DNA of 64,000 bases from the IMG/VR virus record IMGVR_UViG_3300037845_000036, positions 33,059-97,058 of that record; one strand, written 5' to 3'. A program made the translations under genes and the position numbers. The notes below the pieces were generated by a model, which saw only the letters and a list, made by a program, of their open reading frames with translations, was not told the DNA's origin and did not search any database. Within the stretch, counting starts at the first letter, position 1; every line of letters starts with the position of its first letter. This DNA is from a virus. Below are positions 7,339 through 55,304 of this stretch, piece by piece.

Positions 7339-7429
7339 TCTTCCCTCGCGCCCGTTCGTCGCTGTCCGTTGCGGCGATCTCGGGTGTCAATCCCTGACGA
7401 GGGACTGGTATTCTATAACAAATTCACAT

Positions 7430-10400
7430 CTAAGCGGCAACTTGCTGCGGTATAATTATCTGTGTCGTTGTCGCCGGGTCCGACGCGCTAGGCGTGCCCG
7501 CAATATCTTTGGCGGAAGACGCTTCGATTGCTGAAGATGCTGCGTTGGCCTCCGCTTCCTGGGCATTTTGTTCCCTCTTCCGAAGAGAGTCTGCCAGATC
7601 GGCTAGATGCTTGCCTTGCGCCTCCACGTCAAGGTTGCGCCACGAATCCACTGAACCACTAGTAGCGCGCTTGACGCTTCCGCCGCGAGCATATCCTTGC
7701 GGGTGCGCGGGCTGCAAATCATTAGCGCGTGAGGCATCCAAGACACTCTGCATGATACGTTGTTTCATCCGATTCATAAACGTATTACGCGCGGCTGCAC
7801 TCATCGGACCATAGGTCTGATGCATCTCTAGGGCGAATTGTGGGTCTAGCAGCATACGATCGAGAATGTGATTGGCCGCTGTTTGTTGTGCGCTCTTAGC
7901 GGCTCCAAGTGCCGTTTTAGTGGCGAGACCTGCGAAAGCACCAAGCGGACCGCCGGCCGCCCAACCAAGCAGATGGCTCCCGACGTGTTCCCCGACCAGT
8001 CCCATTAACAGACCAGTTATACCGCTACGCGCGGCGCCCGGCGGGGCATGAGAAAATAATTCGCGCGTATCAGAACCGGCTCCCATTTTCGCTCTTTCAG
8101 CCAAGGTAGAGCGCTCCAAATCAGCCGACAGTGCGTCCCATTGCTGTTGTGATCCTGAGAAAACCGTAGTTAAAACGTCCTTATTCTGCTCAATGAAATT
8201 TGGCAGCTTTGTAGGCATCAGTGTCGGATGTTCACCGCCCGCCATTGCCGTACCCGTGAAATTACTCAGCAAATGATCAATGACGGCTTTTTGCACACCC
8301 TCCGTGGCGGCTTGATTGCCTGAGACAACATCCATTAGCGTCTTGGCTTTTTGCGCGCGATCAGTACCGCTAAACAATCGCGCAACCGCTCGTTCAGGAT
8401 CATCCTGCAGAAAGGCTCCCGCTACCGACTTTGTAAACGCATTCCTCTCGTTCAGATGGCGGCTGATCGCATCATCCAATGTTTGTTTTGCCGTTACCGC
8501 ATTGGTATAGCGATCCGTCACGCCAAGTTCCGACAGCGCGCCTTGGTGCTGTTGTATCCATGCAGACGCGGCTTTCGGGTCAACTTCGCCATTTTTGATG
8601 ACGCCTGCACGGTTGCCAAAATCAAGCGCGGCGTAATCGCGAGCGGCTTCTATCGCTTCTGGTCGGCTGCCCGTTAATTGTAAATAACGGCGCATTGATT
8701 CCCCGCCCTGTGGGCCAGCCTTCCAAAACTGAGGCAAAATCCCCGATTCGCCCCACCCTGGCTTTAGCGGATATGTCTTCTCATGATCAGCGAGCGCCTG
8801 TTGAATGCCGTCAAGCTGTTCCTGCGCCGCCTTTGCAGTTTGGAACTTTTCTAATAACTCGGGCCGCGAAGATAACGCGCCCTCAAGCGGCTTGTACCAT
8901 TTCTGATATTGATTGAGATCGAGTGTCCCGTCAGAACGCATCGCGCTCTTGCGCAGCGAGAATGATAGGGCATCGTCGAGTGCGGCTTGTGATTCGGGCG
9001 GGGCTACGGCGAGGAATTTATCAACTGCTTTCTTACCACCATTAGCCACTAACCACGGCACCTGTTCGTCAGATAGTTTGTAACTGTCGTATGCACCTCC
9101 CTTTTGTAGCATCTTGCCAACGGCGTGAAGTTGACCTGCTGTCTCGCCGCTATAGCCGCGCTTCATCTCCGCATATTCGTTATTCCACTGAGCGAACTTG
9201 GCGCGCGCTTCGGGTGTAAGCGGTGTCAGGGCAGGAGTCTGCGGAACTCCCTGATCGAGCGGAGAACTCCCAGATCCCCCTCCCGTGCCGCTCCCGCTGA
9301 TACCACCTTCAGGTAATGCTCCCTCTCGTAAGGCGACATTGCCTTGGTTCGCTGCTTCAAGTATTCCACGCCCTGTCTCATCTCGGCTTGCGGCGCGAAG
9401 GGCGGCTGGATTGCTACCGTAGACACGGGCAGCATCTTGCGCAAAATTCGGCCCTACGCCAAGCGTATTCCGTTCAATGTTGCCAAACCGCTCATTAATC
9501 CCCGGCATCCCAGGGTTGATCGCGCCCACATCTTCAAGTCGTTGGGTGTCCGAAATCGCGTCATTCGTCGCTTGGTCGATACCGCCCTTGAGTCTGATCA
9601 GCCGCACAGCCTCTTGCGGGGTATGGTCAGAAACGTTCTTTAGCCGCGCATTGATGTCGGCGCGGAGGCGGAATGCATCGTCAATCGGGATAACGTTGCC
9701 CCAATTATCAACCCGATCGTACAGTTTATTTTCCATCGCGCCGAACATATCGGGCGAAAAATCCTGCGTGAGTTGCTGGCGCGCCTGTTTGATGGCGTCA
9801 GGGCGCATACCCATTGTTCCATTGGGATCAATACTCTGCCTCAGTTGATCCAACCGCGCGCGCTCGGCGAGATATCCTTCCTGAGTTGGATCGCGCATTA
9901 CACTGCCATACTTGGCAAATGCGATGTCCTGTGGCGTTGTCGCCGCTTCCTCGCCGCCTATTTGATTTGTCGCTTCAGAAAGCTTCTGCTGTGCAGCCGT
10001 TTCGGCTGATGCTAACGCTTGGCCTGCTGGCGCACGTTCTGCCTCAATTGCCGTCCGCGCTGTTTGCCCTTGTTCTTCGGGCGTCATCGTTGGCGTAATA
10101 GGCGCGCGGGCCATGGCGGCGTTTTGCTGTTCCGCATCAATCGTTTTCTGATGGGCTAAGTCAATATTTTCTAAGACCTTTCGTACCTCATCTTGCGCGT
10201 TAACGGGTGATGCATTGGCGGGTGCCATACCTTCCATCTTCTGAACGCGTGCCGCATTATTTGATATGTTCTGCTCACGCAGCGCGTTGCCCAATTCTGA
10301 ATCGTTCGGGCTAAGCCGTGAACGGGCGCGCTGTAGGGCCAACAACCCCGGATCGTTCGCCACTTCCGCTGTGGTCGGCTTTGAGCCTGGGATAAGCTCT

Positions 10401-11332
10401 GCCTGATCAGCCGCTAGCCGTTGCTGCAATACATCCATTGACGCTTCGGGCGTGGATGCCGCACCCATTGCAGCGTTATATCCCGCTTGTTCTGTGGCGG
10501 TCTTACGTGCACTGGGTGTGAGCGCGGGAGTGACGGCACGCGCGCCCTCAATACCAAGCGCGGGGCCTAACGCCCCAGCCATCTCGCCAAGAGGCCGTGC
10601 AACTTCTGACGCAATTTTTGAATTGGGCCACTCTTTGTTCGCCGCTTCTTGCGCAATTTCCCCCGTTCCGCCGCTGACTGCCCCCAATGCGGCACTCCCG
10701 ATAGGGTTGCCGGGCGAAATACTTGATAGCGCTTCCCCTACTCGCGGCAGGCCGCCAGCAGTCGCTAGTTTCCCCGCAACCCCCGGCCCCGCAAAAGCTG
10801 TTGCGGCGCTGACTGCTTGCTGCAGCACCTTGCCACCCCACGTCGTCGGTTGCGTATTTTCAGTTGTTGGCAATCCTGATTCCGTTGCTTTTTTATTCCA
10901 CCACTCTGACCCGAGTGGCATATTTTGGATGAACGGTGAACTCTCAATTTCTTGCTTCCTTGCGATCATCCGCTTGTACGCTTCATCATCAATACCAAAC
11001 ATCGCCGCTATCGTGTCGAGCGGATGGGCAACATCGCTAGCCAATTCTCTACCAGAACCGCTAACGGCATTGATTGCCCCCTGTGCCACATCAGCGGGGA
11101 TTCCTAATGCTCTTGCGCCGCCTGTAACTAGTCCAGATTCGGCGGATGAAGTCAGGGACGGCTCCTCTTTTGTTTTTGGTGGAGGCGGAATGGCACCTTT
11201 TAACCCAGACGTTATGTCGGAAGAAAATGCATCTAGCGGGCTACCAGAGGTTAGCGCAGTTGATGACGAAGGTGGCGCGGCCGTATTAACAGCCGTCGCT
11301 AGATCTGCTGTGAACGGGTCAACGTCAGCCAT
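7430..11332 (-). CDS. Large internal virion/ejection protein
   Basis: 1300 aa, Ala/Gln-rich helical with Gly-rich hydrophobic segments; follows the other ejection gene; YARGGSV near the C-terminus. Confidence 0.7.
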   Translation of the reverse strand: MADVDPFTADLATAVNTAAPPSSSTALTSGSPLDAFSSDITSGLKGAIPPPPKTKEEPSLTSSAESGLVTGGARALGIPADVAQGAINAVSGSGRELASDVAHPLDTIAAMFGIDDEAYKRMIARKQEIESSPFIQNMPLGSEWWNKKATESGLPTTENTQPTTWGGKVLQQAVSAATAFAGPGVAGKLATAGGLPRVGEALSSISPGNPIGSAALGAVSGGTGEIAQEAANKEWPNSKIASEVARPLGEMAGALGPALGIEGARAVTPALTPSARKTATEQAGYNAAMGAASTPEASMDVLQQRLAADQAELIPGSKPTTAEVANDPGLLALQRARSRLSPNDSELGNALREQNISNNAARVQKMEGMAPANASPVNAQDEVRKVLENIDLAHQKTIDAEQQNAAMARAPITPTMTPEEQGQTARTAIEAERAPAGQALASAETAAQQKLSEATNQIGGEEAATTPQDIAFAKYGSVMRDPTQEGYLAERARLDQLRQSIDPNGTMGMRPDAIKQARQQLTQDFSPDMFGAMENKLYDRVDNWGNVIPIDDAFRLRADINARLKNVSDHTPQEAVRLIRLKGGIDQATNDAISDTQRLEDVGAINPGMPGINERFGNIERNTLGVGPNFAQDAARVYGSNPAALRAASRDETGRGILEAANQGNVALREGALPEGGISGSGTGGGSGSSPLDQGVPQTPALTPLTPEARAKFAQWNNEYAEMKRGYSGETAGQLHAVGKMLQKGGAYDSYKLSDEQVPWLVANGGKKAVDKFLAVAPPESQAALDDALSFSLRKSAMRSDGTLDLNQYQKWYKPLEGALSSRPELLEKFQTAKAAQEQLDGIQQALADHEKTYPLKPGWGESGILPQFWKAGPQGGESMRRYLQLTGSRPEAIEAARDYAALDFGNRAGVIKNGEVDPKAASAWIQQHQGALSELGVTDRYTNAVTAKQTLDDAISRHLNERNAFTKSVAGAFLQDDPERAVARLFSGTDRAQKAKTLMDVVSGNQAATEGVQKAVIDHLLSNFTGTAMAGGEHPTLMPTKLPNFIEQNKDVLTTVFSGSQQQWDALSADLERSTLAERAKMGAGSDTRELFSHAPPGAARSGITGLLMGLVGEHVGSHLLGWAAGGPLGAFAGLATKTALGAAKSAQQTAANHILDRMLLDPQFALEMHQTYGPMSAAARNTFMNRMKQRIMQSVLDASRANDLQPAHPQGYARGGSVKRATSGSVDSWRNLDVEAQGKHLADLADSLRKREQNAQEAEANAASSAIEASSAKDIAGTPSASDPATTTQIIIPQQVAA

Positions 11333-14300: not shown

Positions 14301-16821
14301 CATTGAACAACTTCCCCAACCCCTGTGCGCCGCTCAGCACAGAAAGCCCCTGAGTAAGTGGGTTTTGCTGTTGCGGCATCGAAGGTGTACTGGGCGCACT
14401 CAATGTCCGCGATGGCGCGCTGGTTGTCGGGATATATCCTTTAGAGAGATCTGGAATCGACAGCGTGACGGACGGCATCGAAGCCGATGTACCATTTTGC
14501 ACCGCTCCGCCACCATCGTATTTGACGCGCCCACCCGCAGCCGCAAAGATCTTCGCGGCTAGCAAGCCAGCCTGAAGCAGACCGCCCAACGCGCCGCTGC
14601 CGCCCGATTGCGTTTGCGTCTGCGTCGTCACAGGCTGCATAAAGTTTTGATGTAACCCGCCGCCTAAAGATCCGGGTTGCGGAGGTGTGCCTAACCCGCT
14701 TGCTCCGGGAACAACCGAAACAGACAAATCAGGCGGCGGCGGGACTAATCCACCGCCTGCGTACCGATTCTTTGCGTTTGGTGCCGACCCATTTGGAGAA
14801 TCCCCTAGAATTCTACCGCCAGCTTTAGCCGTATCTCCCATCCACGGGGTAACATCACTGCCCCCTCCGTAATCCCCGCCCTCACTCCCACCAAACAAAC
14901 CCGACAGATACCCACTAGACCCAAACGCACCCGTCGCACCAAGAATACCAGCACCCGCTAATCCACCGCCTAGCAGTTCCGAGCCAAGATTTGGCCCTGG
15001 ATACGTGGTTGATCCCGTACCGCCCGATGCGCCGCCCAACCCTTCAGCAATATTTGATAACCACCCCGTTGTCTGGAACGGATAGGCTTGCTGTTGGATA
15101 AACTGCTCATACGGGACATTCAATTCATTCTGCAACTGCGCCTGCTGAACGCTACCCGCATTCAACAGCGAACTCGCACCTGTTAATCCCGTGTTTAGCG
15201 CTTCATTACCAAGATTTGCTATGCCGTAACCCGCACCTTCACCAAGCCACCCCGTCGCTTCCTGGGCACCAACACCCGCTTGCTGCTGAGTGTTGAACTC
15301 GCCCAACTCGCCCTGACCGATACCCATGCCAAGTTGCCCAGCGCCCAGCAAGCCAGACTCAGTAAGCTGCCCCGTCCCCAACTCCAACTGTCCGGCATTA
15401 GTGAGACCGGATTCTGTAAGCTGGCCGGCACCCAATCCTAATTGACCCGTCCCCAACCCGAGTTGGCCCGCGCCCAATCCCAACTGCCCCGCACCAAGCA
15501 TTCCTGATTCGGTGAGTTGCCCGGCACCTAATCCAAGCTGGCCAACACCGAGTCCCAATTGTCCCGCGCCAAGCCCCAACTGGCCGGCGCTCGCTTCCAA
15601 TTGGCCAGCATTGGTCAGGCCAGACTCGGCGAGTTGACCCGCTCCCAACCCCAATTGGCCACTCGCAGCTAACCCGGCCTCCGTCAACTGGCCAGCGCCC
15701 AACTGCATCTGCTGTTCGGCGTTTAACTCTTGCTGTGCCTGCGAGAACCCCTGTTGTTGGATACCGGCGATGACAGGGGCCTCCGCCGTCTGTTGCTGCC
15801 CTGCCGTGAGAGCCTGCGCCACCGCTTCCCGATCACCACCAAAAGCACCTGCCGCAGCGGCGTTGCCTTGGATCTGCGCCTGTTGAATGGCGTTCTGTTG
15901 ATTGAATTGTTGTTCTGTTGTCGCCGTTACATCTTGCTGATACGGATTAAAATATGTCGGCAACGCACTGTAATCGGTTGCCTTAGCCGTGTACGGCGAT
16001 ATTGCTCCCGGAATGCTCGCCCCAGTCGCGGCAGCTTGGGTTGCGTAAGGGTTGACGGTTCCCGGCAACTGGCCCGCGATTCCCGAAATCGAATTAGCCG
16101 CTCCTTCCGCACTCGCCTCACCCGTCGCTGCCGCCCCAGCACCCCCAGAACCAGTCGCAAAATTTGTATAATAATTAAGCGCCGAAGGAACCTGCCCCGC
16201 CAAATTTTCGGCCGTAGTAGCCCCAGTTGATGCCGTCCCTGCACCACTCGGTCCCATAGCCAGTCCGGTATAGGGACTAAGCGCACCCGGCATGCTTCCA
16301 GCCAAACCAAGCGTCGTTGGCGACGAACCATATCCATATCCCGCAGGAGGAACGGCGGTATCGCCCTGACCAGAAATTATGGCATTAGGCGCGGGTGTTT
16401 GCGGTGTCTGCGGCGCATATGCATTATTGACACCTGTAATCCCACTCAACTCTGATGGAAGCATTCCGGCGAGGCTACCCGCATTGGTGTACTGCCCAAG
16501 CCCCATTCCCGGCAAATTATACGCCCCCGGAAATTCCATCGGCGTAATCGGATTCGATGCACTCTCCATCAAATTATTCGCAGCGCCGATGTACGGGTTC
16601 GAGACTCCTTGGAGTCCCGCAACCTCGCTTAGCGCTTGGTTCTGATACGGCTGTAACGGCGCTACAATATTCGGGGCGCCCGCGCCGCCAGTCGGATATT
16701 GATTAAGCGGAACACCCGCGACATTCTGCGCCTGTGCTAGAACATTACTATAGGCGTCAAGAAATTGTTGCGGCGGTTGACTAGAGCTAGTCACCGTATT
16801 ACTTCCACTCGACCCGCACAT
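11332..16821 (-). CDS. Giant ejection/DNA-transfer protein with phage-tail-lysozyme-like domain
   Basis: 1829 aa; MCGSSGS start; YFNPYQQDV, AAGAFGGDR, QQAYPFQ ejection-type motifs; GIADSVYRES...GLYQH..R...QNQFALKE muralytic domain at about 13050-13410. Confidence 0.75.
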   Translation of the reverse strand: MCGSSGSNTVTSSSQPPQQFLDAYSNVLAQAQNVAGVPLNQYPTGGAGAPNIVAPLQPYQNQALSEVAGLQGVSNPYIGAANNLMESASNPITPMEFPGAYNLPGMGLGQYTNAGSLAGMLPSELSGITGVNNAYAPQTPQTPAPNAIISGQGDTAVPPAGYGYGSSPTTLGLAGSMPGALSPYTGLAMGPSGAGTASTGATTAENLAGQVPSALNYYTNFATGSGGAGAAATGEASAEGAANSISGIAGQLPGTVNPYATQAAATGASIPGAISPYTAKATDYSALPTYFNPYQQDVTATTEQQFNQQNAIQQAQIQGNAAAAGAFGGDREAVAQALTAGQQQTAEAPVIAGIQQQGFSQAQQELNAEQQMQLGAGQLTEAGLAASGQLGLGAGQLAESGLTNAGQLEASAGQLGLGAGQLGLGVGQLGLGAGQLTESGMLGAGQLGLGAGQLGLGTGQLGLGAGQLTESGLTNAGQLELGTGQLTESGLLGAGQLGMGIGQGELGEFNTQQQAGVGAQEATGWLGEGAGYGIANLGNEALNTGLTGASSLLNAGSVQQAQLQNELNVPYEQFIQQQAYPFQTTGWLSNIAEGLGGASGGTGSTTYPGPNLGSELLGGGLAGAGILGATGAFGSSGYLSGLFGGSEGGDYGGGSDVTPWMGDTAKAGGRILGDSPNGSAPNAKNRYAGGGLVPPPPDLSVSVVPGASGLGTPPQPGSLGGGLHQNFMQPVTTQTQTQSGGSGALGGLLQAGLLAAKIFAAAGGRVKYDGGGAVQNGTSASMPSVTLSIPDLSKGYIPTTSAPSRTLSAPSTPSMPQQQNPLTQGLSVLSGAQGLGKLFNGGSSSSNSGTVGGGSSLGGAVAPSSSGLRPYDAGGGVAVAQAGAMASGAGAPLQQNLVAQYSQLPAEQLQELALRYPATTPQGVAIQRALQIRKMNPTVGTGAQGQATPTATAARGGRMGLERFDDGGSPGVDDPNNVGPPEIVRKTNQPSGGLDPGDLPITPVVAITNNGTDVAVPQSLPQTSALPPGVKINSKGMPYSTEPTGGVTPNTAGAGLPITPVDAMKANAADPNAGTHLPVVPSDQVFGSGLVAPPGAGVPATTSPVGGGMVSGGLGAPPPSAVKPLVSGKPPAISRDDVVNFWVNSGAPQHVAEGIADSVYRESHYDPNAWNPDDKGSPSGGLYQHHDTRLSGLQAFAAGQSGSWTDPNIQNQFALKEVTGGDPIATTHWKEILNAPDRASAQTLWDKYFERGVAVGPGGGGGGLGHPTGVQTTGLPSPPAAQGTTNAGTGDLSESIKNILAKIQSGDNNKTSNFYNSPWMPLIATGAGMLASRSPHMGVAVGEGLQTGLKTVEQQQAQIPEGQLKQAQADIARLNTALLPHQMQAAIDAAGGSAVPAAGGAPVAGAVKGTDTNPMPVAATGQGNGAATASAGATATSSLTGLPLPPTYGNSAPGSTKEIVDNQIQSIDAQIAQVRRAMVWEPTKLTENQATVARLIEARSGLLKMYPQVAGEIAGAEQKARSEYTYTPTRPGSVIFQGGKAIASVPTLTETTDAEGNKYRTYMAPPLPGNSGTPPQPQIQPQAQKLPSAAPTPAPAATNVSAASPTAPMLAEIGPGAREALVARAQTEQKDRQAVLAEAQSAQSQQATLQRLATDAPKFVQGPFAGVAQEASRYLRLIDPSYDGQVASFEDFVKNAGNLTRQATKEVSSRAAFQEMQFISSTLPSPEMSPKGLQQVVGEYEGLNDYKIAKARAQQQWEEGHGGVGHVEGFESNWQATAPVTPYTFVLRRMDPTERRSLFSQWQQTGDGQAVLQRLARENEYAKANGLYQ
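15300..15710 (-). repeat. Degenerate 21-bp coding tandem repeat (GLGAGQL / TESGLLG heptads)
   Basis: GLGAGQLGLGVGQLGLGAGQLTESGMLGAGQL... in the ejection protein. Confidence 0.8.
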
Positions 16822-16982
16822 TACTTGTGCGCCCCAGTGTTTATTTTGGTTAATATTATCGAATACTGCTCAGACATTACTTCGCGCTCCGGGGCGGTAC
16901 CCGGAAGAACAACCCGCTGTTCAAGCCGTGGTAGAGTAAATAGACCCAGCGCGTGAGGGTCGAACGATTACATTAGCACAAA

Positions 16983-17459
16983 TCAGCGAATCAAGAAAAT
17001 AGCACCGATCTGTTCTCCACGCCGCGCCCACCAGCGGCGCTTGGCCTCAAATCGCTTCCGCGATGTTACCGATGTAAAAAATGGGACTTCATGACCGGAT
17101 TCCAAGGCGAACAATGCCTTGATGTACTGCACCCACGCCATCAGATCATCGGAGTAGCCTGTACCCTTGCGATATTCCAGTCGGACAAACAGCCAAAGCT
17201 CGTGCCAATAGAACTGTTTGGAATACCAAAATTTATTCATCACAAGACCGACGCTGGCGGCTATCACGCCATTGGGCGCATCGATCACGCCATGCATGCC
17301 GCCGTTTTTCTGCGTTCCCAATCGAATATGGGCGCGTACCTCATCTTCGTCATGCGCAAAACCTAACGAATTATCGCGCTCCAATCCCAACAAAAGATCG
17401 TAAAGCGCATCTTCATCAGCCTCGCCAGCAATGCGGACGTTGGCCGGCCTCTCGATCAT
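16983..17459 (-). CDS. GNAT-fold acyltransferase-like protein
   Basis: VRIAGEADE, ELWLFVRLEYRKGTG, terminal GEQIGAIF. Confidence 0.65.
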   Translation of the reverse strand: MIERPANVRIAGEADEDALYDLLLGLERDNSLGFAHDEDEVRAHIRLGTQKNGGMHGVIDAPNGVIAASVGLVMNKFWYSKQFYWHELWLFVRLEYRKGTGYSDDLMAWVQYIKALFALESGHEVPFFTSVTSRKRFEAKRRWWARRGEQIGAIFLIR

Positions 17460-32654: not shown

Positions 32655-33191
32655 TTATACTCCTGCCCACGCGTTGCCCGTCTTTATGCGGGATATAACA
32701 CTTGGGTTCACTCCAAACACCCTCGCAATCTCAGATTGCTTCTTAGTTTTAAGTAAGACTCGAATTTCACTAACGTCTTCCTTGGAGAGTTTAGCCATAC
32801 CATGCTGTTCATGCCTCGCTTGCATGCCGTGCGCGACACGATCTTCGCCATTTTCTTTTGATGTTCCCCAACACAAGTTACTCAAAGTTGCATTGAGCCG
32901 ATCGCCATTCTTGTGGCGACATTCCCATCCGAACGGGGCAGGCCCCACGAATGCCTCTAACACAAGTCTATGTACGAGCACTCTTTCACCAACATTATCT
33001 CGCCAAAGCGCGCAACTTCGATAGCCACTTACTAGTGCATTTGTAGAAATGTCACGTGCCGCAAATCGTCTACTATATCCATTCACAAAAATAATAGTTC
33101 TAGCCAGTGCGCGAACGCGCCCGCAATTACTTACTTCATAATATCCTTCATAATCCCGTATAGGAAGCCATATCTCAGCATCTTGTTCCAT
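32655..33191 (-). CDS. NUMOD4-HNH homing endonuclease
   Basis: EIWLPIRDYEGYYEVSNCGRVR; VHRLVLEAF; CRHKNGDRLNATLSNLCW; C-terminal HTH. Confidence 0.9.
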   Translation of the reverse strand: MEQDAEIWLPIRDYEGYYEVSNCGRVRALARTIIFVNGYSRRFAARDISTNALVSGYRSCALWRDNVGERVLVHRLVLEAFVGPAPFGWECRHKNGDRLNATLSNLCWGTSKENGEDRVAHGMQARHEQHGMAKLSKEDVSEIRVLLKTKKQSEIARVFGVNPSVISRIKTGNAWAGV

Positions 33192-38797: not shown

Positions 38798-39757
38798 CTA
38801 AAAGTCCGCAAATTGCGTTACACCGCATAAACCTGTCGCAGTGCCCATATTGCCGACACCGACATGATCATAAAGCACCAACCGGCGCACCCCATTCGAG
38901 GCCGTACCCTGTAGCGCGTAAGTTCCACGCACATCGCCAGTCGTCGCCGTCGCCGGACTTGTCGTATCAGCCACAGTAAAGCCCGTGGGTGAGGCCACAA
39001 GCGTCGTATCCGGCCACCAAATCGTCGCGAACTGAAAGTGATCAATCCGCAGGAAAAACCCATACGTGTCGCTCTGCCCCGCACTCACATTCGATCCCGA
39101 CAACGTGCCCGCAGGCGTAATCGACAGGATGTACTTGAACGCCTTGTTTCCCGTCGCTGTCACGGCGTTCGACCCGGTGATGGTCTCCGTCATCGGATAG
39201 TTGTAAAGATCAAACCCGCGAACCGTAAAGGTCGCCGCCGAATCATTACCCACCGACGCGATCGAAACCGCCCGCGCAACCGCCGTTCCCGGCGCCCAAA
39301 AGATATTCCCGCCAACCGACGCATTCTGCTGCGGTACCTGCGCCGCATCGATCAACAGCAGCCCCGTTACCGTCGCCCCGGTATCCGCCCGCGTGATCGA
39401 TTGACCAACCGTAATCCCGCCACCCGAGGTCGTTACCAGCGTCAGCGGCACGCCCGCGCTCGGTACCTGCGCCGCCGCCATCGATGTCGTGCTCAGCGTC
39501 GTCGGAACCGCATTCAGGCACTCAAAGCGCCCCATGCCCCACCAACCATACGCACCACGCTCCCCTTCCGCCAACCCGCCCGCCGCCGCACCCGGCGAAT
39601 AGCAATACGGCTTGCGCGGGTCCATGATCCCGCAACCCTGATCCCACAGGCTCGGCGAACGCGATCCGTTGTAATCCGACGCCTGACCCAATCCCTGGCC
39701 CGATGGCACACTCTGGCCAAAGCCAACAAACGGACCCTTGTGTGCAGTTATGCCCAT
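38798..39757 (-). CDS. Structural (head decoration/spike-like) protein
   Basis: MGITAHKGP start; GNKAFK; ADTTSPATATTGDVRGTY; GVTQF end; follows the capsid gene. Confidence 0.65.
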   Translation of the reverse strand: MGITAHKGPFVGFGQSVPSGQGLGQASDYNGSRSPSLWDQGCGIMDPRKPYCYSPGAAAGGLAEGERGAYGWWGMGRFECLNAVPTTLSTTSMAAAQVPSAGVPLTLVTTSGGGITVGQSITRADTGATVTGLLLIDAAQVPQQNASVGGNIFWAPGTAVARAVSIASVGNDSAATFTVRGFDLYNYPMTETITGSNAVTATGNKAFKYILSITPAGTLSGSNVSAGQSDTYGFFLRIDHFQFATIWWPDTTLVASPTGFTVADTTSPATATTGDVRGTYALQGTASNGVRRLVLYDHVGVGNMGTATGLCGVTQFADF

Positions 39758-40143
39758 TAGGAGGCGTCCTTCTTCAGCGGCACCACGTTCGTCCGTGCCG
39801 CAAATGATTCGAGATACTCTGCAGCAGCGAGAAGAAGCTCGGGGTTATCTTTGAAATATCCCAAACCGGGATTGCAATTCGTGCAGCAAAGACCCCTCAC
39901 CGAATGTCGCCCCCTTCCGCGAGAATGATCGTGATCCACCGCTAACCACTTAGTCTGCCCATTCCGTTGTGCGGTTTCCGGTTCCTTACAGATTGCACAT
40001 ACGCCATTTTGGGCAACAAGCATATCCTGATATTCAGCAAGCGTGATCCCAAGCCGCCTGTCCGCGAGCGATTGCGTGGGCAGCCACAAAAGATGCTTCA
40101 CGCTCACTTGCAGCGGCGACACCATACTCCTCTGCTGCCGCAA
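39757..40143 (-). CDS. Endonuclease VII-like domain (possibly a frameshifted tail of the upstream HNH gene)
   Basis: GITLAEY..QNGVCAIC, LAVDHDH, VRGLCCTNCN.GLG. Confidence 0.75.
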   Translation of the reverse strand: MRQQRSMVSPLQVSVKHLLWLPTQSLADRRLGITLAEYQDMLVAQNGVCAICKEPETAQRNGQTKWLAVDHDHSRGRGRHSVRGLCCTNCNPGLGYFKDNPELLLAAAEYLESFAARTNVVPLKKDAS

Positions 40144-40597
40144 TAAAAGCTGCCGCCGCCTCTTCTTTTGTAGAAAACCTTCCGAGATGCTTCAGTTTAT
40201 AGTCGCGCGTGATCGTCGCCAACCACTTCCCCCGCGCCGCATCCCACGTAACACCACGACTCCCGCTCTTATTCCCCTTGCGTAATCCGCCCTTTCGAGC
40301 CGTTTCCGCAGCGGTTTGCAATTTCAGATTTGATAAACAAAGATCAAGATAGTCGCCGTTTTCTGGCGCAACGTTACCCTCTGGCCATTCGCCATATGTA
40401 ATCGCCCATACAATACGGTGGGCCAAAACACGATAGCCATCTACGCCGACATAGAGCCGCCCGTTAGCGGCTACAGCGCCAGCTTCATCGCCGATCCTAA
40501 TCCGATGTGAGGTTGATGTTTTCCACGTCAACCTGCCCGCATGCGGATCATAAGAAAACAGTTCACGAAGGCGTTCAACAGGAATAGCGCTCGTCAT
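40034..40597 (-). CDS. HNH endonuclease with AP2 domain
   Basis: RLRELFSYDPHAGRLTW, AHRIVW, NKSGSRGVTW..KWLATI..HLGRF; upstream TTGACG-17-TAACGT promoter implies ATG start at 40597. Confidence 0.8.
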   Translation of the reverse strand: MTSAIPVERLRELFSYDPHAGRLTWKTSTSHRIRIGDEAGAVAANGRLYVGVDGYRVLAHRIVWAITYGEWPEGNVAPENGDYLDLCLSNLKLQTAAETARKGGLRKGNKSGSRGVTWDAARGKWLATITRDYKLKHLGRFSTKEEAAAAFIAAAEEYGVAAASEREASFVAAHAIARGQAAWDHAC

Positions 40598-40732
40598 CTC
40601 CACGGCTCCTGGATACAGGTTGGCGATGACGTGTACGTTACTCACTTTTTCTCCTGTCGTCAACAATAAAATTTCACATAGCCTGACTAACTTTCGGTAT
40701 TTACCCTAGTATTAACAACCACTTGCAAGTGG

Positions 40733-41647
40733 TTATGAAGTAGGATACGTTCCAAAAGTTGCGCGGGGATTGTAATACGAAAGTGAATAGCGCTCGTACC
40801 CCTTGCACAGGAGGTTGTCGGTCGAGAATTCAACTTCCATACTCATTTCAAACGGGATACGCTCCATATATGCTAGCCCCGGAACATTCGTCAAAAGGAA
40901 CCAAGCATAGGGCGAGGTCAAGAAGTCATCGACAAAGTAACCTTCTTTCAGACCACCAGTTGTCGAGCGGATAGCATTGACATCGTTATCGCCGGTACCG
41001 GGCCGCATCGGAGTTTCGAGTAGTCGAATGGCGACTGGCTCAAGCTCAGGCGGGATGAGCAGCATCTTGCCACGGGCGTACTGCTTCAAATTCGCCTGAT
41101 CGACGAACTGGCGACGGATGCTGATCATGGCCGAGAGCAACGAAGTCTCGGAAAGATCGGTCGCAGTCGTGAAAGCATTGGCGTAAGATCCGCCATCGAT
41201 CGGATGCGCGGTTGAGAACAACGGCTGGCCATCGCCACCGACTGCAGCGTTGTAGACGTTGCCGAGGTTGAAGACGCTGGCTGCGTAGATTTCCTTAGTT
41301 TGATTGAAGGATTCCTGCAGGCCGAGGTTCGAGGGATTGAATTGCGTCTTGTAGAGATTGTCGTCGATCGCGGGACGAGTGATCGCGTAACCGAGCGAGA
41401 TTTCCAGATGTGATTGATTCCAAACGAATCTCTCACCCGCCCTATTGTCGAAAAAGGCGGTTCCGCCCTCAGTCTTCAGACGAGCGAGCGGCAAATAGCG
41501 GTTTTCCGCCGTGCGCTCAACCGCCTGTTCCGACTTGATGTATTGGAAGATCTTGTCGTACTGACGGGGGATCTGCTGGTATTTCCCGGTAACGGCTCGC
41601 AGGCCAGGGAACAGCAGGTCGCGGATCTGTTGAAGTGCTACCGGCAT
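40733..41647 (-). CDS. Major capsid protein (HK97 fold)
   Basis: LLFPGL, KTEGG, LGYAIT..IDDNLY, GGDGQPLFSTAHP, DLSETSL, LLIPPEL, ERYS. Confidence 0.9.
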   Translation of the reverse strand: MPVALQQIRDLLFPGLRAVTGKYQQIPRQYDKIFQYIKSEQAVERTAENRYLPLARLKTEGGTAFFDNRAGERFVWNQSHLEISLGYAITRPAIDDNLYKTQFNPSNLGLQESFNQTKEIYAASVFNLGNVYNAAVGGDGQPLFSTAHPIDGGSYANAFTTATDLSETSLLSAMISIRRQFVDQANLKQYARGKMLLIPPELEPVAIRLLETPMRPGTGDNDVNAIRSTTGGLKEGYFVDDFLTSPYAWFLLTNVPGLAYMERIPFEMSMEVEFSTDNLLCKGYERYSLSYYNPRATFGTYPTS

Positions 41648-41650
41648 TGG

Positions 41651-42259
41651 TTAGATCCCCGTCAACTGCCTGTAGAACTGGTTATTCCAGCCCACAAGCA
41701 AGGAAGCATAAGGAGTCGTGAGGTCGGTTCCGTTGTCTCCCGGCGGATCGGCAATCAACGCTAGGATGCGGAACGGAAAAGTCGAAGTTGTCGTTGGCGT
41801 GGTGTGCAAGTCGATGTAGGCGCCGCTCTGACCGTTTAAGGTAGAACCAGTGCCGTTCGCGTACTGCGCGTTCATGCCAACCATCGCCTGCGTGACGAGA
41901 ACCGTCGCGCCGGCCGAGTTGCTGGTTTGAACCTTGAAGGTCACATTGGGATCGTCAATGATGAGCGCGTTGACGATGCCGTTGGTGATCTGGTCCGCGC
42001 CGGGGTAGTAGGGCGAGTAAACAAGCTTGCCCTGCGAGGCCGAGATGTAATTGCACCCCGCAAAGATCCCGAGAGGCGGTGTGGTGCCCGGAGTCAGGGT
42101 ATCAATATACCCGCTCGACAGCATCACCACGACATCGCCCGTGTAGATCGAGTGCGTGTTGGTGTAAAGAATCTGATATTGGGTCTGGTTGGCCGACCAC
42201 GAGGCACCGTCTTGCCTCCCGGCGACGGCGAACCCATAGGGTGCTAAGACGTTTGCCAT
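41651..42259 (-). CDS. Capsid decoration/cement protein
   Basis: MANVLAPYGF, IYTGDVV, GIFAGC.Y, DDPNVTFKVQ; directly upstream of the capsid gene. Confidence 0.7.
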   Translation of the reverse strand: MANVLAPYGFAVAGRQDGASWSANQTQYQILYTNTHSIYTGDVVVMLSSGYIDTLTPGTTPPLGIFAGCNYISASQGKLVYSPYYPGADQITNGIVNALIIDDPNVTFKVQTSNSAGATVLVTQAMVGMNAQYANGTGSTLNGQSGAYIDLHTTPTTTSTFPFRILALIADPPGDNGTDLTTPYASLLVGWNNQFYRQLTGI

Positions 42260-42261
42260 CG

Positions 42262-42462
42262 GGGCGAAATTCCCGATTTGTCCGTCTACCCCTGACCGAT
42301 CTGGGATGTGCGGGAGGGTGAAGGCCGCCGTTTCGCGGGCCGCCACACTTTCGGTTCTTGTGTCGGAAGAACCAGAAATTTAACTGTCAGGCCCTCCGCG
42401 AACCTGACGAGCGCAACCTTATGCGCGGCTGATAATTCGCGTGTTTTTTTCTGTTGTCAAGG
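42262..42462 (-). promoter_or_regulatory. Promoter and structured 5' leader of the capsid operon
   Basis: TTGACA-17-AATTAT followed by hairpins GTCAGG/CCTGAC, GGTTCTT/AAGAACC, GGCC/GGCC. Confidence 0.5.
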
Positions 42463-50230: not shown

Positions 50231-53125
50231 TTATAGGTCGTAGGGCAACGCGCGAGCACGTTGCGTCGGCCACGTCATCGACTGCTCTTCGCCCTTGTCC
50301 CAAGCTTCGCGGCGCTCGAAGATGCCGATATCGCTTAGATGTTTGAGAGCACCACTACAAGCGTCCATGGTGTCGTCATGTCTTCCTCTAGGAAATAAGC
50401 AAATTTCCTCAATCAATGGTTCGCACCAGACGGGTCTCGTTCCATCTTCATACATCGGAATATAGAGTTGGTGTGACGAAAATATCCACTGTACTGCATG
50501 AGCGCGCGCCCATTTGTCCCCACGTGCGGCCTTTAACTCTGTTGCCCATGTCTGATCAGAAAAAAGCCGTCGTAATTCTTGTTCTAAACCGTGCCCTTGG
50601 CCCTGAGTCTCAATCCCAAGATATTCGACTTTATAGCGTCGGCAGGTGTCATTAACCCATTCCACCAATCCCCAGTTGGCTTGCCGCTGTTCTCGATATC
50701 GCGGCGAACGCCATTCCTCTGCCGTCACACCAGAAGGCAATTCATCGGGCGGTCCATGTAACTCTAGCCGCTTGGTCCATCCATAAAGCAACAACACCTT
50801 TGGAAACCCGTAGTCATCAGCCTCTCGAATATATGTACCGTCCCCATTAGGGACGATGCGCCCCTTGCCCTCCGCCCTGAACACACCAAACACCAACATC
50901 GCGCTTCGATCATTCTGCTGTCTCTCGGTAAACGCCGTGTCCACCCATGCCACGACATATTCCAACGCAGGATACTGTATCCGGCCGTTTCGGATCATGT
51001 CTTGCGGAAACGTTCCATCAGGCAATAATGGAGGCCACGGTTCCAACCACTCTGCCTTAATAATTCCGCCGCCTTTTGGTATAGGAAGCTGTTGTAACTG
51101 ACCTGCTACACTGTATTCCGTAAGACGATCGCCATCAAGAGCACGTAATCCTTGCTCTATTTGCTTGAGAGCACTATCGGTCCACACTGCTGGCCAAAGT
51201 AATTCTCCACGCTCTGTTCTTGGGTCTCCTTGGCATGCTCGATCAGGATCAAATCTGGCCGGGTACATCAAGTGTACAGTGTCTTCTGGCCAGTTTTTTA
51301 GTGCCCAATCTGTTGCATCAAGAGTGTGTAATCTTTGCATGATCAATATTCGTGCAGACGTGCGCGGATCTGTAATACGAGTTGTCAAATCACTCATACC
51401 ACGAATTGAAGCATTGCGCTCCATTTCACTATCCGCACCTCTGCGAGTTTGGGGATCGTCGCAGATTATTAAATTTCCGCCACGGCCCAACAGGCCGCCT
51501 TCGATTGAACTTGACATGCGCTCACCACCAGCAGTATTGCCGAAGTTGGCTCTGCTCTGCTGATCCGGCAGTATTTTTACTTGTTTACCCCAATGTTTTT
51601 GATACCATTCCCCCATAACCAGTCGTCGCATCTTAACGGCAAGTTCCTCTGAAAGAATAGAACCGTATGACACAGACAAAATCTTCACATGAGGGCCAGA
51701 AAGAGGCCCCCATTTCGCTTCTGGCTGTATCCATAGCCATGCTGGGAAGATAATATTGACCAAATTGCTGTTATGAACAGCCAAATCATTAACCGTAAAA
51801 CTCTCGTCTTCTTTAACGGTCAGGCATCTACATTCCGCCTTGCCTGCGCCAACGATGCTAAGAACGGGATCAGGATGAAGGACAGTGTGGAAACTCCGAG
51901 GCGTTGCTGCCTCTATCGCTCTTTTTTTCCTTTCGCAAAGACCTGGCAAAAATTTGAATTTGCTAACATTCGTTTCATCAGTGGCCCCCACATCAAATGA
52001 TGTGTATAACCCTCCCGGCTGTCGCTTGCTTTCAAGTTTTGCCACACGGCGACGAATACGAGTATTGATCCCTATTCGTAGACACAAATGTTGAATATCC
52101 CTAGCCAAACCTTCTGATACAGTAGTCATTTTCGCTTCGTGGCTTAGTCGTGTATCATTTCTATGCTTTACTGCAAAATATCCGTCACAACTGGCATACG
52201 CCCCAACAAAATTTGATATAATCGTATTGTTCGCCCGCAACACAGCGGCGGGAACTCGTTTGGTATAACTGTCAGAACCACGCAAGCCATGGCCCCCTAG
52301 AAATTCCTGCAGACGCCCACTTCGGTTAGAATGGACTCCTATCGCCGTACAGGTACCCACCCGTGTCCGTCGTTTAGTCTCAAATCCTAGCGCGTGTGCG
52401 CATCGTTCAAAATCATCCAGGATTTCTTCTTCATTCCCCGTAAACGAAATTCCTGTGTATTTAACAGAACCATCACCGATCAAATATCCCAAAAAACGCG
52501 CTTCTTCCGTTGACATGCTTGGGGACACAACTTCGCTCCCCGTCGCATCTCCGCCCACCGCTGCCAAAATATCTGTCGTCTTTAATTCCCCGGCGGCTAC
52601 CCAACCACGCGTGGTTAAAAACGGATGATCTGGCGCCACCTTTGCTCGGCGTCCCTGAAATGTTTCTACCGCTATGACATCCAACAATCCCTGTTCATGA
52701 ACCGCCGTGACAGGTCTATATTGTCCCCTATGCGTCAGTACACGATCACCAACTTTAATGTCTCCCAATCTTATTGGTCCAATGTCCGTCAATACCATTT
52801 CATCTATACTGACCGGCTTTGTGTGCCTCGGAGGTATGTTGATAATGAGATTTCTTATCTTTCCCGTTCTTATTTGCCGTAATTTCTTGGCGATTTCTAT
52901 ATGATGCCAATTAATTTCTAATGTCTGCGTCTCACCAATTTCCTTCCACGCATGGCGCATGAACTCAATCAGCGACCGCTCGCAATTCTCCTTTTCCTGC
53001 TTGTTCGCCCTCATCTCCAGCAGGATCGCAAGCTCGATCTGCTCTTCCTTGGTGAGCGGCTTTAGCTTTTTCCGATCGACGTTGGGGTTTGGTCGGAGAA
53101 TTAATTGACCGCCGGGCATGGGCAA
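50231..53125 (-). CDS. terL: Terminase large subunit (intein-containing)
   Basis: NWHH, LIINIPPRHTK/S Walker A, LIICDDP Walker B, IMQRLH, WVDTAF, FPRGRHDDTMDA. Confidence 0.95.
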   Translation of the reverse strand: MPMPGGQLILRPNPNVDRKKLKPLTKEEQIELAILLEMRANKQEKENCERSLIEFMRHAWKEIGETQTLEINWHHIEIAKKLRQIRTGKIRNLIINIPPRHTKPVSIDEMVLTDIGPIRLGDIKVGDRVLTHRGQYRPVTAVHEQGLLDVIAVETFQGRRAKVAPDHPFLTTRGWVAAGELKTTDILAAVGGDATGSEVVSPSMSTEEARFLGYLIGDGSVKYTGISFTGNEEEILDDFERCAHALGFETKRRTRVGTCTAIGVHSNRSGRLQEFLGGHGLRGSDSYTKRVPAAVLRANNTIISNFVGAYASCDGYFAVKHRNDTRLSHEAKMTTVSEGLARDIQHLCLRIGINTRIRRRVAKLESKRQPGGLYTSFDVGATDETNVSKFKFLPGLCERKKRAIEAATPRSFHTVLHPDPVLSIVGAGKAECRCLTVKEDESFTVNDLAVHNSNLVNIIFPAWLWIQPEAKWGPLSGPHVKILSVSYGSILSEELAVKMRRLVMGEWYQKHWGKQVKILPDQQSRANFGNTAGGERMSSSIEGGLLGRGGNLIICDDPQTRRGADSEMERNASIRGMSDLTTRITDPRTSARILIMQRLHTLDATDWALKNWPEDTVHLMYPARFDPDRACQGDPRTERGELLWPAVWTDSALKQIEQGLRALDGDRLTEYSVAGQLQQLPIPKGGGIIKAEWLEPWPPLLPDGTFPQDMIRNGRIQYPALEYVVAWVDTAFTERQQNDRSAMLVFGVFRAEGKGRIVPNGDGTYIREADDYGFPKVLLLYGWTKRLELHGPPDELPSGVTAEEWRSPRYREQRQANWGLVEWVNDTCRRYKVEYLGIETQGQGHGLEQELRRLFSDQTWATELKAARGDKWARAHAVQWIFSSHQLYIPMYEDGTRPVWCEPLIEEICLFPRGRHDDTMDACSGALKHLSDIGIFERREAWDKGEEQSMTWPTQRARALPYDL
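51770..52816 (-). mobile_element. Intein (349 aa) with LAGLIDADG homing endonuclease, inserted in the TerL P-loop
   Basis: K|PVSIDEMVLT..IKVGDRV; DHPF block B; LGYLIGDG and VGAYASCDG; CRCLTV..VHN|S. Confidence 0.92.
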
Positions 53126-53713: not shown

Positions 53714-53918
53714 GCCGTACTAGATACCGTCGCGGCAAATCCTTCAATAAATCCGCATGCTCCCGCTCTATCCGCGCTAGGTCCACCGTCATCGCATCCT
53801 CCGCGCTCATCGGCGGACCCCACACATTGCCTCGCAACTCCGCAAAACAATTCGCGCACCGCCGCGTCTCTGGGTTGTAGATGTGCGTGCAGGTCACTAC
53901 TCGCCCCCACCGATCCAC
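53706..53918 (-). CDS. Small Zn-finger-like protein
   Basis: CTH..CANC. Confidence 0.45.
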   Translation of the reverse strand: MDRWGRVVTCTHIYNPETRRCANCFAELRGNVWGPPMSAEDAMTVDLARIEREHADLLKDLPRRYLVRHV

Positions 53919-55072
53919 TTCGTTGGTATATAGGGGCGCTCCTCACGCTGCGGCTTTACGGGCAGCGGAACATATCCCGCCCGCTCATCCGCCTCACGTC
54001 GCTTCTCCGAACCGCCCACGGGGTTGAAAATCCCAGTGGCGAACGCGTCAGCCACCAACGGCACATCAACAACTATTGGCCCGCAGCCCGCCGTGAACGT
54101 CTCTCCCAACCCGATCGCCTGTTCACCAATCATCGTGTCCAACAGCAGCGACTTGCGCGGCAAATGGCACGAGCAGATCAGCCGCCCATCTCGCTCAGAC
54201 AGAAGATGTTCGGGAGCCGTCTGGTCGCAGGGACTCGGGAAGACCAATAGTCGCGGCGCGCGCATCTCGGCGCTGCCGGGTTCGGCGCTGATATGCCTCA
54301 CAGAGATGCCGGTAACATCCTCCAGCGCTCGCTTGAGATCGTCCGGCAGTTTGTAGGGCAATGGGAACAGCCCCTGCGGCGGCAGCCCAATCACCCACCG
54401 CAGGCGGTCTATCGCCTCAATGACGCGAGCGGCATCCGCGTTGTCTCCAAACGACGCCGAACCGCTCTCTTGGTCGTCAGCGGCTTCATAGCCAAACGTA
54501 TCGCATAACTTGGCAAGCCAGACCTGCGGGTAAGCGTCAGCACCCCACACCAAGCAAGTAGTCAGAAATTCTCCGTTCGGATTCTGCTCGCGTGGTGTCG
54601 GCCAGCCTCGCTCACGCAATCCAGCGATCACAGCATCGCGAAGAGCCTCGCCAGCCGCAGTCGCCGCCTCTATTTCTGCTGTTTCTTGCGCCGTGTGCAG
54701 GGGTGCGGCGGGATCAAAATCAACAGTACCCCCTTCTGTCCGAAGTCGCGCTAGACCAAGATAACGCGCCTCAGCATCAGCCTGTACTCCAACGACCGCG
54801 CCACATCGCCGAACGTAATCATCACCCGCAAAAATCTTCTCCCACTGACTCGCCAGCGACTTCCCATACCGCTGAACTAGGCTATTTCCCCCCGTACCTG
54901 CAATTTCTGGCGAGGGGGACACGCACGCGTCTGGGACTGCCTGTGGCTGCGGGGGGGTACCCGCCGGCGGTGGGGGGTCGGATCTGACCTGGCATGCGCA
55001 GGGCTGGCCAGCAGCCGCTAGCGCTTCATGGCGACCGCAGCAAGGCTGATCGTTGTCAATGAAACCAAACAC
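53897..55072 (-). CDS. Hypothetical protein carrying a major-capsid-like segment
   Basis: AEARYLGLARLRTEGGTVDFD vs capsid AENRYLPLARLKTEGGTAFFD; GGAGG upstream of GTG start. Confidence 0.6.
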   Translation of the reverse strand: MFGFIDNDQPCCGRHEALAAAGQPCACQVRSDPPPPAGTPPQPQAVPDACVSPSPEIAGTGGNSLVQRYGKSLASQWEKIFAGDDYVRRCGAVVGVQADAEARYLGLARLRTEGGTVDFDPAAPLHTAQETAEIEAATAAGEALRDAVIAGLRERGWPTPREQNPNGEFLTTCLVWGADAYPQVWLAKLCDTFGYEAADDQESGSASFGDNADAARVIEAIDRLRWVIGLPPQGLFPLPYKLPDDLKRALEDVTGISVRHISAEPGSAEMRAPRLLVFPSPCDQTAPEHLLSERDGRLICSCHLPRKSLLLDTMIGEQAIGLGETFTAGCGPIVVDVPLVADAFATGIFNPVGGSEKRREADERAGYVPLPVKPQREERPYIPTKWIGGGE

Positions 55073-55304
55073 TTATCCGATCCTCCGCTATGGCCACAAC
55101 GAGACAACGAGCAGCATCATAATCAATATGGCGAGCGAGCCTAAGCTCACTGCCTCGCGCCAGTCATCCCCTATTCGCAGCCTTCGTTGCATCGCACCAT
55201 CGCCTAGCCATTAATAACACTTAACGGTCGGTGCGGCGTATTCTAAGCTATTGATATCGTTGCATACCCATCGTTGTGCGCCGCAGCATGGTTTTGGGAA
55301 TTGC

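Follow-up and report, generated by a model that had tools for sequence, protein, structure and literature searches.

Within a 64,000-nucleotide stretch of viral DNA (hereafter the window; positions 33,059 to 97,058 of the 97-kb IMG/VR virus record IMGVR_UViG_3300037845_000036), whose genes lie almost all on the minus strand, an open reading frame (ORF) of 391 amino acids located between TerS and TerL contains a piece resembling the phage's own major capsid protein (MCP), while the remainder of this protein, here called ORF391, appears unrelated to capsids. The best preserved part of the piece corresponds, in a structural model of the MCP, to the tip of the E-loop. The explanation to which we lean, if only slightly, is that the piece derives from an old partial copy of the capsid gene and that the E-loop tip within it has been exapted, with different accessory proteins now carrying it as a short peptide module. 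In the mosaic genomes of phages, pieces of structural genes are commonly regarded as mere debris. In the present case, such a piece, taken from the structural protein that is most conserved, seems to have been kept by selection in two lineages and in two different non-capsid proteins, with only the loop tip preserved. We found no report of a capsid E-loop fragment retained in a non-capsid phage protein in the full-text literature, although most subscription journals were outside this search.

The similarity between ORF391 and the MCP is significant by several measures. BLASTP aligned ORF391 residues 76-123 (54704-54847) with MCP residues 29-70 (41438-41563), with 24 of 48 columns identical, six gap columns, a score of 40 bits and an expect value (E) of 4e-8 for the pair; none of 300 shuffled MCP sequences reached 40 bits (maximum 30.8). 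When the MCP was compared with all 1015 six-frame ORFs of at least 50 amino acids from the 97-kb genome, ORF391 was the only non-self match above noise (40 bits, E 1e-5), the next best ORF scoring 22.7 bits. A hidden Markov model (HMM) built from 12 close MCPs placed ORF391 residues 71-123 on MCP positions 24-70, with an E of 2.6e-7 per sequence and of 0.0024 when all loci were searched in six frames. A search with ORF391 residues 50-135 against 5.8 billion sequences returned 138 candidates, none with an E of 0.01 or lower, a limit that a 40-bit match cannot pass in a database of this size. A sequence-only reading of the window had proposed that a capsid segment was copied into an unrelated protein and that its second block matches at about 15 of 21 residues with diverged codons. 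Both proposals, and the significance of the pairwise alignment on which they depend, were confirmed, the block being identical at 16 of 21 positions. At the DNA level only 63 of 126 aligned bases of the segment are identical to the MCP gene, and 19 of the 24 identical residues are encoded by different codons.

The resemblance is distributed unevenly over the segment. By the method of Nei and Gojobori, the proportion of synonymous differences (pS) between the ORF391 segment and the MCP is about 0.95 and thus saturated, while the proportion of nonsynonymous differences (pN) is 0.36 over the segment and 0.22 in the tip block; the working MCPs of the window and of the phage G001 show a pS of 0.66 and a pN of 0.39 in the same region. 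ORF391 keeps 12 of the 22 columns conserved in the MCP family within residues 12-73. The tip block retains the family consensus residues L52, G53, A55, E60, G61 and D67 and also seven lineage-specific residues of its own MCP (R50, Y51, R56, L57, T59, G62, T63), and it is the part of the segment that is conserved with both the MCP and the counterparts in other phages described below. Upstream of it, the near-invariant residues S39 and E44, conserved in 94% and 98% of MCPs, respectively, are lost. Judged from these alignments, conservation of the MCP pattern is apparently confined to the tip block.

The assignment of this block to the E-loop rests on a structural model of the MCP. The MCP has 2541 relatives in a representative library, and its AlphaFold2 (AF2) model, with a predicted local distance difference test score (pLDDT) of 85, had HK97 heads as its top Foldseek matches (E 2e-11). 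In this model, strands 43-50 and 71-79 are joined by a well-predicted coil (residues 51-70) and followed by a strand (81-89) and a long helix (99-127). The hairpin before this spine helix is, as we take it from established HK97 anatomy, the E-loop. The model thus supports that the conserved block, MCP residues 47-67, is the E-loop tip just before the spine helix, as the sequence-only reading had surmised. ORF391 shares with the HK97-fold MCP (phrog_371 / Mu gpT-like group) this hairpin tip and significant similarity to the MCP family in the N-arm and E-loop region. It is, however, not a full HK97 capsid protein: the match is restricted to about 50 residues (MCP positions 24-70), the A-domain, P-domain and spine helix are lacking, the predicted core is a different one without an HK97 fold, and the rest of the protein is unrelated.

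Counterparts of the piece were found in a second group of phages, where it is not fused to the remainder of ORF391, namely in the IMG/VR records of loci L004 and L005 and in the related record L013. In these records, an ORF of 103 amino acids is located directly after TerL, and its first 24 residues constitute the tip block (MCP HMM positions 45-71). The stop codon of this ORF overlaps the start codon (ATGA) of an ORF of 75 amino acids which carries MCP positions 72-105, and a gene for the family core found in ORF391 (see below) follows about 300 nucleotides after the latter. The genuine MCP of the L005 phage is encoded 23 kb away and is 54% identical to that of the window. L013 has an extra ORF between the two pieces, and a 285-amino-acid ORF (6707-7561, plus strand) in which MCP positions 64-105 are followed by positions 4-34 in non-collinear order; the last 105 residues of this ORF are 77% identical to part of an ORF (15913-17223) at the unrelated locus L003, marking it as a mosaic gene. 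Together, these findings strongly indicate that MCP positions 45-71, 64-105 and 4-34 survive within small ORFs of the second phage group as remains of the old copy. A search for homologs of the L005 103-amino-acid ORF found only this ORF itself, and a pattern scan of IMG/VR for the tip motif recovered only the three known records. The L005 tip ORF shares the reading frame of TerL, and this frame stays open from the very first base behind the TerL stop codon (9950-10024, plus strand), which is probably a coincidence.

Several lines of evidence suggest a common origin of these pieces. The pieces of the window and of L005 and L013 share residues just upstream of the block that are found in no MCP, and in a tree based on 54 columns, comprising 24 N-terminal MCP segments and the three pieces, the pieces form one clade (support 100/98), which is located inside the subclade of the window MCP and apart from the MCP of the L005 phage itself (G001). 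Because of these shared flanking residues and this position in the tree, a single old event is to be preferred over repeated copying. The window piece is somewhat nearer to its own MCP (24 of 66 residues) than to other MCPs (16-20 of 66), while the G001 piece is not (20 of 60, compared with up to 22 of 60 for others) and groups apart from the MCP of G001. The piece and the family gene have stayed linked even though the cassette precedes TerL in the window but follows it in L005. Taken together, the alignments and the tree strongly indicate that the piece goes back to a single ancient copying event, in which the 5' end of a capsid gene from the MCP subclade of the window was placed in a terminase-proximal accessory region. 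Concerted evolution with the resident MCP gene was also considered, but a DNA identity of 50% rules out ongoing gene conversion; and because of this low identity and its distance of 13 kb from the MCP gene, the piece cannot serve as recombination homology.

The counterparts also allow selection on the tip block to be assessed. Between the window and L005, 13 of 19 residues of the block are identical, and nine of these are encoded by different codons. In simulations of drift with a per-site change of 0.5, at least 13 identical residues were reached in none of 5000 runs, and the share of changed codons among the kept residues was 0.48, below the observed share of 0.69. Within the second phage group, the L005 103-amino-acid ORF differs from L013 by 16.5 synonymous and 7.5 nonsynonymous changes, equivalent to a ratio of nonsynonymous to synonymous rates (dN/dS) of 0.12, and from L004 by five synonymous changes and no nonsynonymous one; its first 26 codons show two synonymous and one nonsynonymous difference, too few to be considered alone. 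For the 75-amino-acid ORF with the next MCP piece, dN/dS is 0.30. These results, in combination with the low pN of the block at saturated pS, strongly indicate purifying selection on the peptide, which preserved the tip block in both lineages as the sequence on either side of it decayed, and they bear out the conservation at the protein level that had been suggested from the sequence. The constraint would thus be on the tip peptide and not on the capsid fold. Since the tip block appears to be under purifying selection in both lineages, we interpret the piece as an exapted fragment and not as a dying pseudogene. Features of a decaying pseudogene were found only in the relative L019; ORF391, by contrast, has an open frame, a Shine-Dalgarno sequence with a start codon and coding-like codons, and the dN/dS of its counterpart ORFs is 0.12-0.30.

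The protein that carries the piece in the window belongs to an unnamed family. ORF391 had no match in Pfam, PHROGs or NCBIfam, none by tblastn against 50,697 phage records and no usable match in the ESM Atlas for residues 121-240 or 55-130, and the family profile found nothing with an E of 1 or lower among the PDB sequences. Seven relatives are present in the database in addition to the record of the window itself (E 1.8e-48 to 1.3e-6), and further loci were obtained from IMG/VR and JGI. A scan of a genome collection added one weak match on a Pararhodobacter scaffold, and a metagenome scan three loci, two of which are the same records as L001 and L003. Family members consist of four parts. A variable N-region of 15 to 211 amino acids, which contains cysteines in 10 of 13 members, is followed by a core with strong conservation, a middle part that again varies and a proline-rich C-terminal tail. 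ORF391 shows the core motif (GLRERGW ... AIDRLRW) and the tail of this family; its own variable, cysteine-containing N-region comprises residues 1-143 and includes the capsid-like piece. Among the other members, that of L003 (9833-10785, plus strand) is divided between two frames that overlap (9833-10384 and 10228-10785) owing to a frameshift or an assembly error, and the 246-amino-acid database relative P0007 contains the motif of the proline-rich tail twice.

The AF2 model of ORF391 is confident only for residues from about 121 to 235, which form a helix, five strands and a helix (block-mean pLDDT 72-93 over residues 121-230). This arrangement is reminiscent of class-I type III secretion chaperones, YbjN-like proteins and immunity proteins; the best matches were an immunity protein (7zhm_D; Z 7.4 over 79 residues, root mean square deviation 3.6) and a chaperone (1s28_A; Z 6.7 over 87 residues, root mean square deviation 3.1), and other type III secretion chaperones scored 4.1-4.8. 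However, all Z scores are below 8, a range common for unrelated arrangements, sequence identity is 9-15%, and there is no sequence match to a solved chain. As a profile-profile comparison (hhalign) of the family with the MCP family gave a probability of 0.06, the family as such is unrelated to capsids. The same value led us to reject derivation of the family core from the MCP N-arm, which had been considered owing to a short resemblance near the start of the core. The family is typically encoded alongside terminase or portal genes: its gene follows TerL in L004, L005, L008 and L010 and is found a few kb upstream of a phrog_332 match (labelled head-tail adaptor in PHROGs) in L001 and L002; no packaging gene was recognised near the family gene of L003.

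A number of observations weigh against an exapted tip peptide. The MCP-like piece is absent from 11 of the 12 other family members, so that the family works without it, and six-frame scans of L001-L003 and L006-L010 revealed no such piece. In the metagenome relative L019, a fused counterpart occupies the same position and can still be aligned with ORF391 across the segment, but it has lost its resemblance to MCPs and its tip block is decayed; the block is thus well preserved in two lineages and decayed in a third. Homologs in all three other genomes examined contained nothing copied from their own genomes (best E 0.14). The segment in ORF391 has a pLDDT below 50, that is, it has no fold of its own and is not docked on the core. 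Furthermore, the public gene call for ORF391 (P0001; 53897-54631) starts at the internal GTG codon of V148, downstream of the segment. Selection on the window copy is deduced from 19 codons compared with those of a single, distant relative, and the dN/dS values are from the other phage group, in which the block is part of a different protein. Finally, the 24 MCPs in the tree were chosen by us from 150 listed ones, and its alignment of 54 columns is short. The sequence-only reading had named absence or decay of the segment in homologs as contrary evidence; this is what is seen in most of the family and in L019, but in the group of L004, L005 and L013 the segment is kept, evidently under purifying selection. 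We also considered whether each member of the family carries a copied piece of some protein of its own phage but rejected this, as none of the three other genomes supports it (two of these records are 47-59% complete), and two other phages with this MCP family showed no extra pieces in the available parts of their genomes (47% and 38% complete). The N-region of L019 (2795-3580, plus strand) contains a motif of about 14 residues twice, some 125 residues apart, with the second copy at the position of the capsid-like block of ORF391.

The most serious alternative, though in our view an unlikely one, is that the piece is a neutral recombination relic, a functionless capsid fragment that is carried along in a tolerant, variable linker of ORF391. 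The large variation in length of the N-regions, the lack of the segment in most family members and its decay in L019, the loss of S39 and E44 and the absence of a confident fold would all be expected of such a relic, and the non-collinear MCP pieces of L013 are typical of scrambling. The genome is also rich in homing-type endonucleases that promote exchange: TerL contains an intein with a LAGLIDADG domain, and the MCP gene is followed directly by an HNH-AP2 gene. PMC10448857 describes gene fragments and exchange boundaries adjoining homing endonuclease genes in phages, and the scrambled, mosaic pieces of L013 resemble this situation. Yet, unlike debris, the ORF391 piece appears to be under purifying selection: synonymous differences from the MCP are saturated while few residues of the tip block have changed, the peptide was kept with changed codons across two lineages to an extent never reproduced by the drift simulations, and in the other phage group, the ORF with the block at its start has a dN/dS of 0.12. 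A recombination relic, which had also been among the initial suggestions, thus fits the origin of the piece but not its present state.

An exapted peptide in ORF391 presupposes that the segment is translated, and it is quite improbable that it is not, that is, that the gene starts at or near V148 and the capsid-like stretch upstream is a non-coding, in-frame remnant. In addition to the public call of 244 amino acids, contigs from one soil metatranscriptome library match 54016-54206, 55075-55263 and two stretches of TerS exactly but skip the segment; this is a gap in coverage and not evidence of absence. Against a start at V148, the residues just before this codon are conserved among homologs, and they are part of a single predicted helix (residues 122-154) that spans it. 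The 147 codons upstream of V148 are free of stop codons, an in-frame TAA immediately precedes the GTG start codon at 55072, and this GTG is preceded by a strong Shine-Dalgarno-like GGAGGA. When codon usage was scored as a log-likelihood, with 12 large genes of the window as the training set, the region from 54952 to 54472, which includes the segment, gave positive values in the frame of ORF391 and negative ones in the two others, and L019 has an equally long, fused N-region. For these reasons, we think that the long form of ORF391 starting at GTG 55072 is the real gene. The public call cuts through a conserved motif and a predicted helix and hence looks too short. The RNA-library contigs, for which carry-over of DNA is possible, are weak support for translation of ORF391; one of them (55075-55263) ends three nucleotides short of the GTG codon and covers the non-coding stretch upstream. 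A scan for promoters and terminators found nothing bearing on ORF391 above the expectation from shuffled sequences. This DNA also occurs in soil metagenomes, two of which may be the source samples, and no population variants of it turned up in sequencing runs.

If, as we prefer, the tip peptide in ORF391 is a retained part of an old capsid-gene copy, the sequence of events may have been as follows. A partial copy of the 5' end of the capsid gene would have landed in the terminase-proximal accessory region, most of it would have decayed or been overwritten, and the E-loop tip would have been retained as a short peptide on different accessory proteins. E-loops link adjacent subunits at the capsomer periphery, according to bioRxiv 10.1101/626804. 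Because E-loops lie on neighbouring subunits, the likeliest partner of the peptide would be the MCP surface that is normally contacted by the E-loop tip of the neighbour, or else a protein that binds the E-loop. It is conceivable, though we propose it only tentatively, that the peptide acts as a short linear motif at such a site; through this contact, the accessory protein might be recruited to heads during assembly or packaging, or might influence contacts in the lattice. A role as an assembly modulator, which was likewise among the initial suggestions, would be plausible. On a bolder and still more doubtful view, the E-loop tip would be a portable address for the capsid lattice that lets non-capsid proteins dock at the neighbour E-loop site, the carriers being a terminase-adjacent, chaperone-like protein in the window and, in the other phage group, the 103-amino-acid protein with the peptide at its start. 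By docking, these carriers could reach the heads, cap or adjust contacts within the lattice, or poison assembly in related phages that compete with their own, and in a variant of this view the peptide would be a decoy for host sensors of the E-loop.

A role in defence, in which a free E-loop-tip peptide mimics a capsid epitope and titrates or blunts a host capsid sensor, had also been suggested and is the least probable of the explanations considered. It would fit an exposed capsid loop that is kept as a peptide in a flexible region, apparently under selection, and a restriction to few lineages as is often seen for accessory counter-defence functions; short exposed stretches of MCPs can reportedly be functional units alone and trigger abortive infection, as is said of the T4 Gol peptide with Lit and of CapRel. 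In those systems, however, the peptides are parts of the capsid protein itself and are sensed by the host. The family is without annotation in Pfam, PHROGs and NCBIfam, and in this soil phage the gene is located in the late packaging and head module and not among early genes. We know of no phage-encoded decoy copy of a capsid peptide, and a search of the full-text literature, which left out most subscription journals, found none, its passages on decoys dealing only with mass spectrometry.

Among known systems, the closest functional analogy to an exapted E-loop tip is Ccm of SaPIbov5, described in PMC8569155 as a satellite-encoded homolog of the capsid protein that redirects capsid assembly of the helper phage. 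In both cases, capsid-derived sequence is present apart from the working capsid gene and could act on the lattice. In contrast to Ccm, which is a capsid homolog of a satellite, the present case concerns a short fragment in an unrelated protein of the phage itself, and it is known from sequence. A tip peptide that binds the capsid lattice would amount to a natural capsid-binding tag of minimal size, and it would show a virus reusing an interface of its own shell to direct or control other proteins. Were it instead aimed at host immunity, it would be a first decoy of a capsid epitope. Either way, a defined peptide of 20 residues and a partner, the MCP, make these possibilities directly testable.

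Coordinates of ORF391, the capsid-like piece, its MCP counterpart and neighbouring features in the window
Feature	Position	Strand	Basis and remarks
ORF391, protein carrying the capsid-like piece	53897..55072	-	391 amino acids; ORF list, family alignment
Shine-Dalgarno-like hexamer GGAGGA	55081..55086	-	8 nucleotides upstream of the GTG start codon (55070-55072); read from the sequence
Capsid-like segment, ORF391 residues 71-123	54704..54862	-	corresponds to MCP positions 24-70; BLASTP and MCP HMM
Predicted E-loop-tip block, ORF391 residues 100-120	54713..54775	-	16/21 identical to MCP residues 47-67
Conserved family core, residues 144-232	54377..54643	-	invariant alignment columns; within modelled residues ~121-235
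Conserved proline-rich C-terminal tail, residues 364-388	53909..53983	-	alignment
MCP, HK97 fold, source family of the piece	40733..41647	-	304 amino acids; phrog_371 major head protein, E 1e-8
MCP residues 24-70, counterpart of the piece	41438..41578	-	end of N-arm, first E-loop strand and predicted E-loop tip; tip residues 47-67 at 41447-41509
Large terminase TerL with intein	50231-53125	-	964 amino acids; LAGLIDADG PF14528, E 3.8e-16; intein splicing domain below cut-off
HNH-AP2 endonuclease gene	40034-40666	-	directly after MCP gene; overlaps endonuclease VII gene
Endonuclease VII gene	39757-40143	-	overlapped by HNH-AP2 gene

Some further observations concern the neighbourhood of the capsid and terminase genes. 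The TerL of L005 (7322-9952, 876 amino acids) is over-long, like that of the window, and around the MCP gene of the L005 phage (stretch L011) there is a long ORF in a different frame. Directly upstream of the MCP, the window encodes a protein of 231 amino acids (41651-42346, minus strand; phrog_37556), and a similar protein is likewise found directly upstream of the MCP in L016 and L017; this protein is a candidate scaffold or decoration partner of the MCP family.

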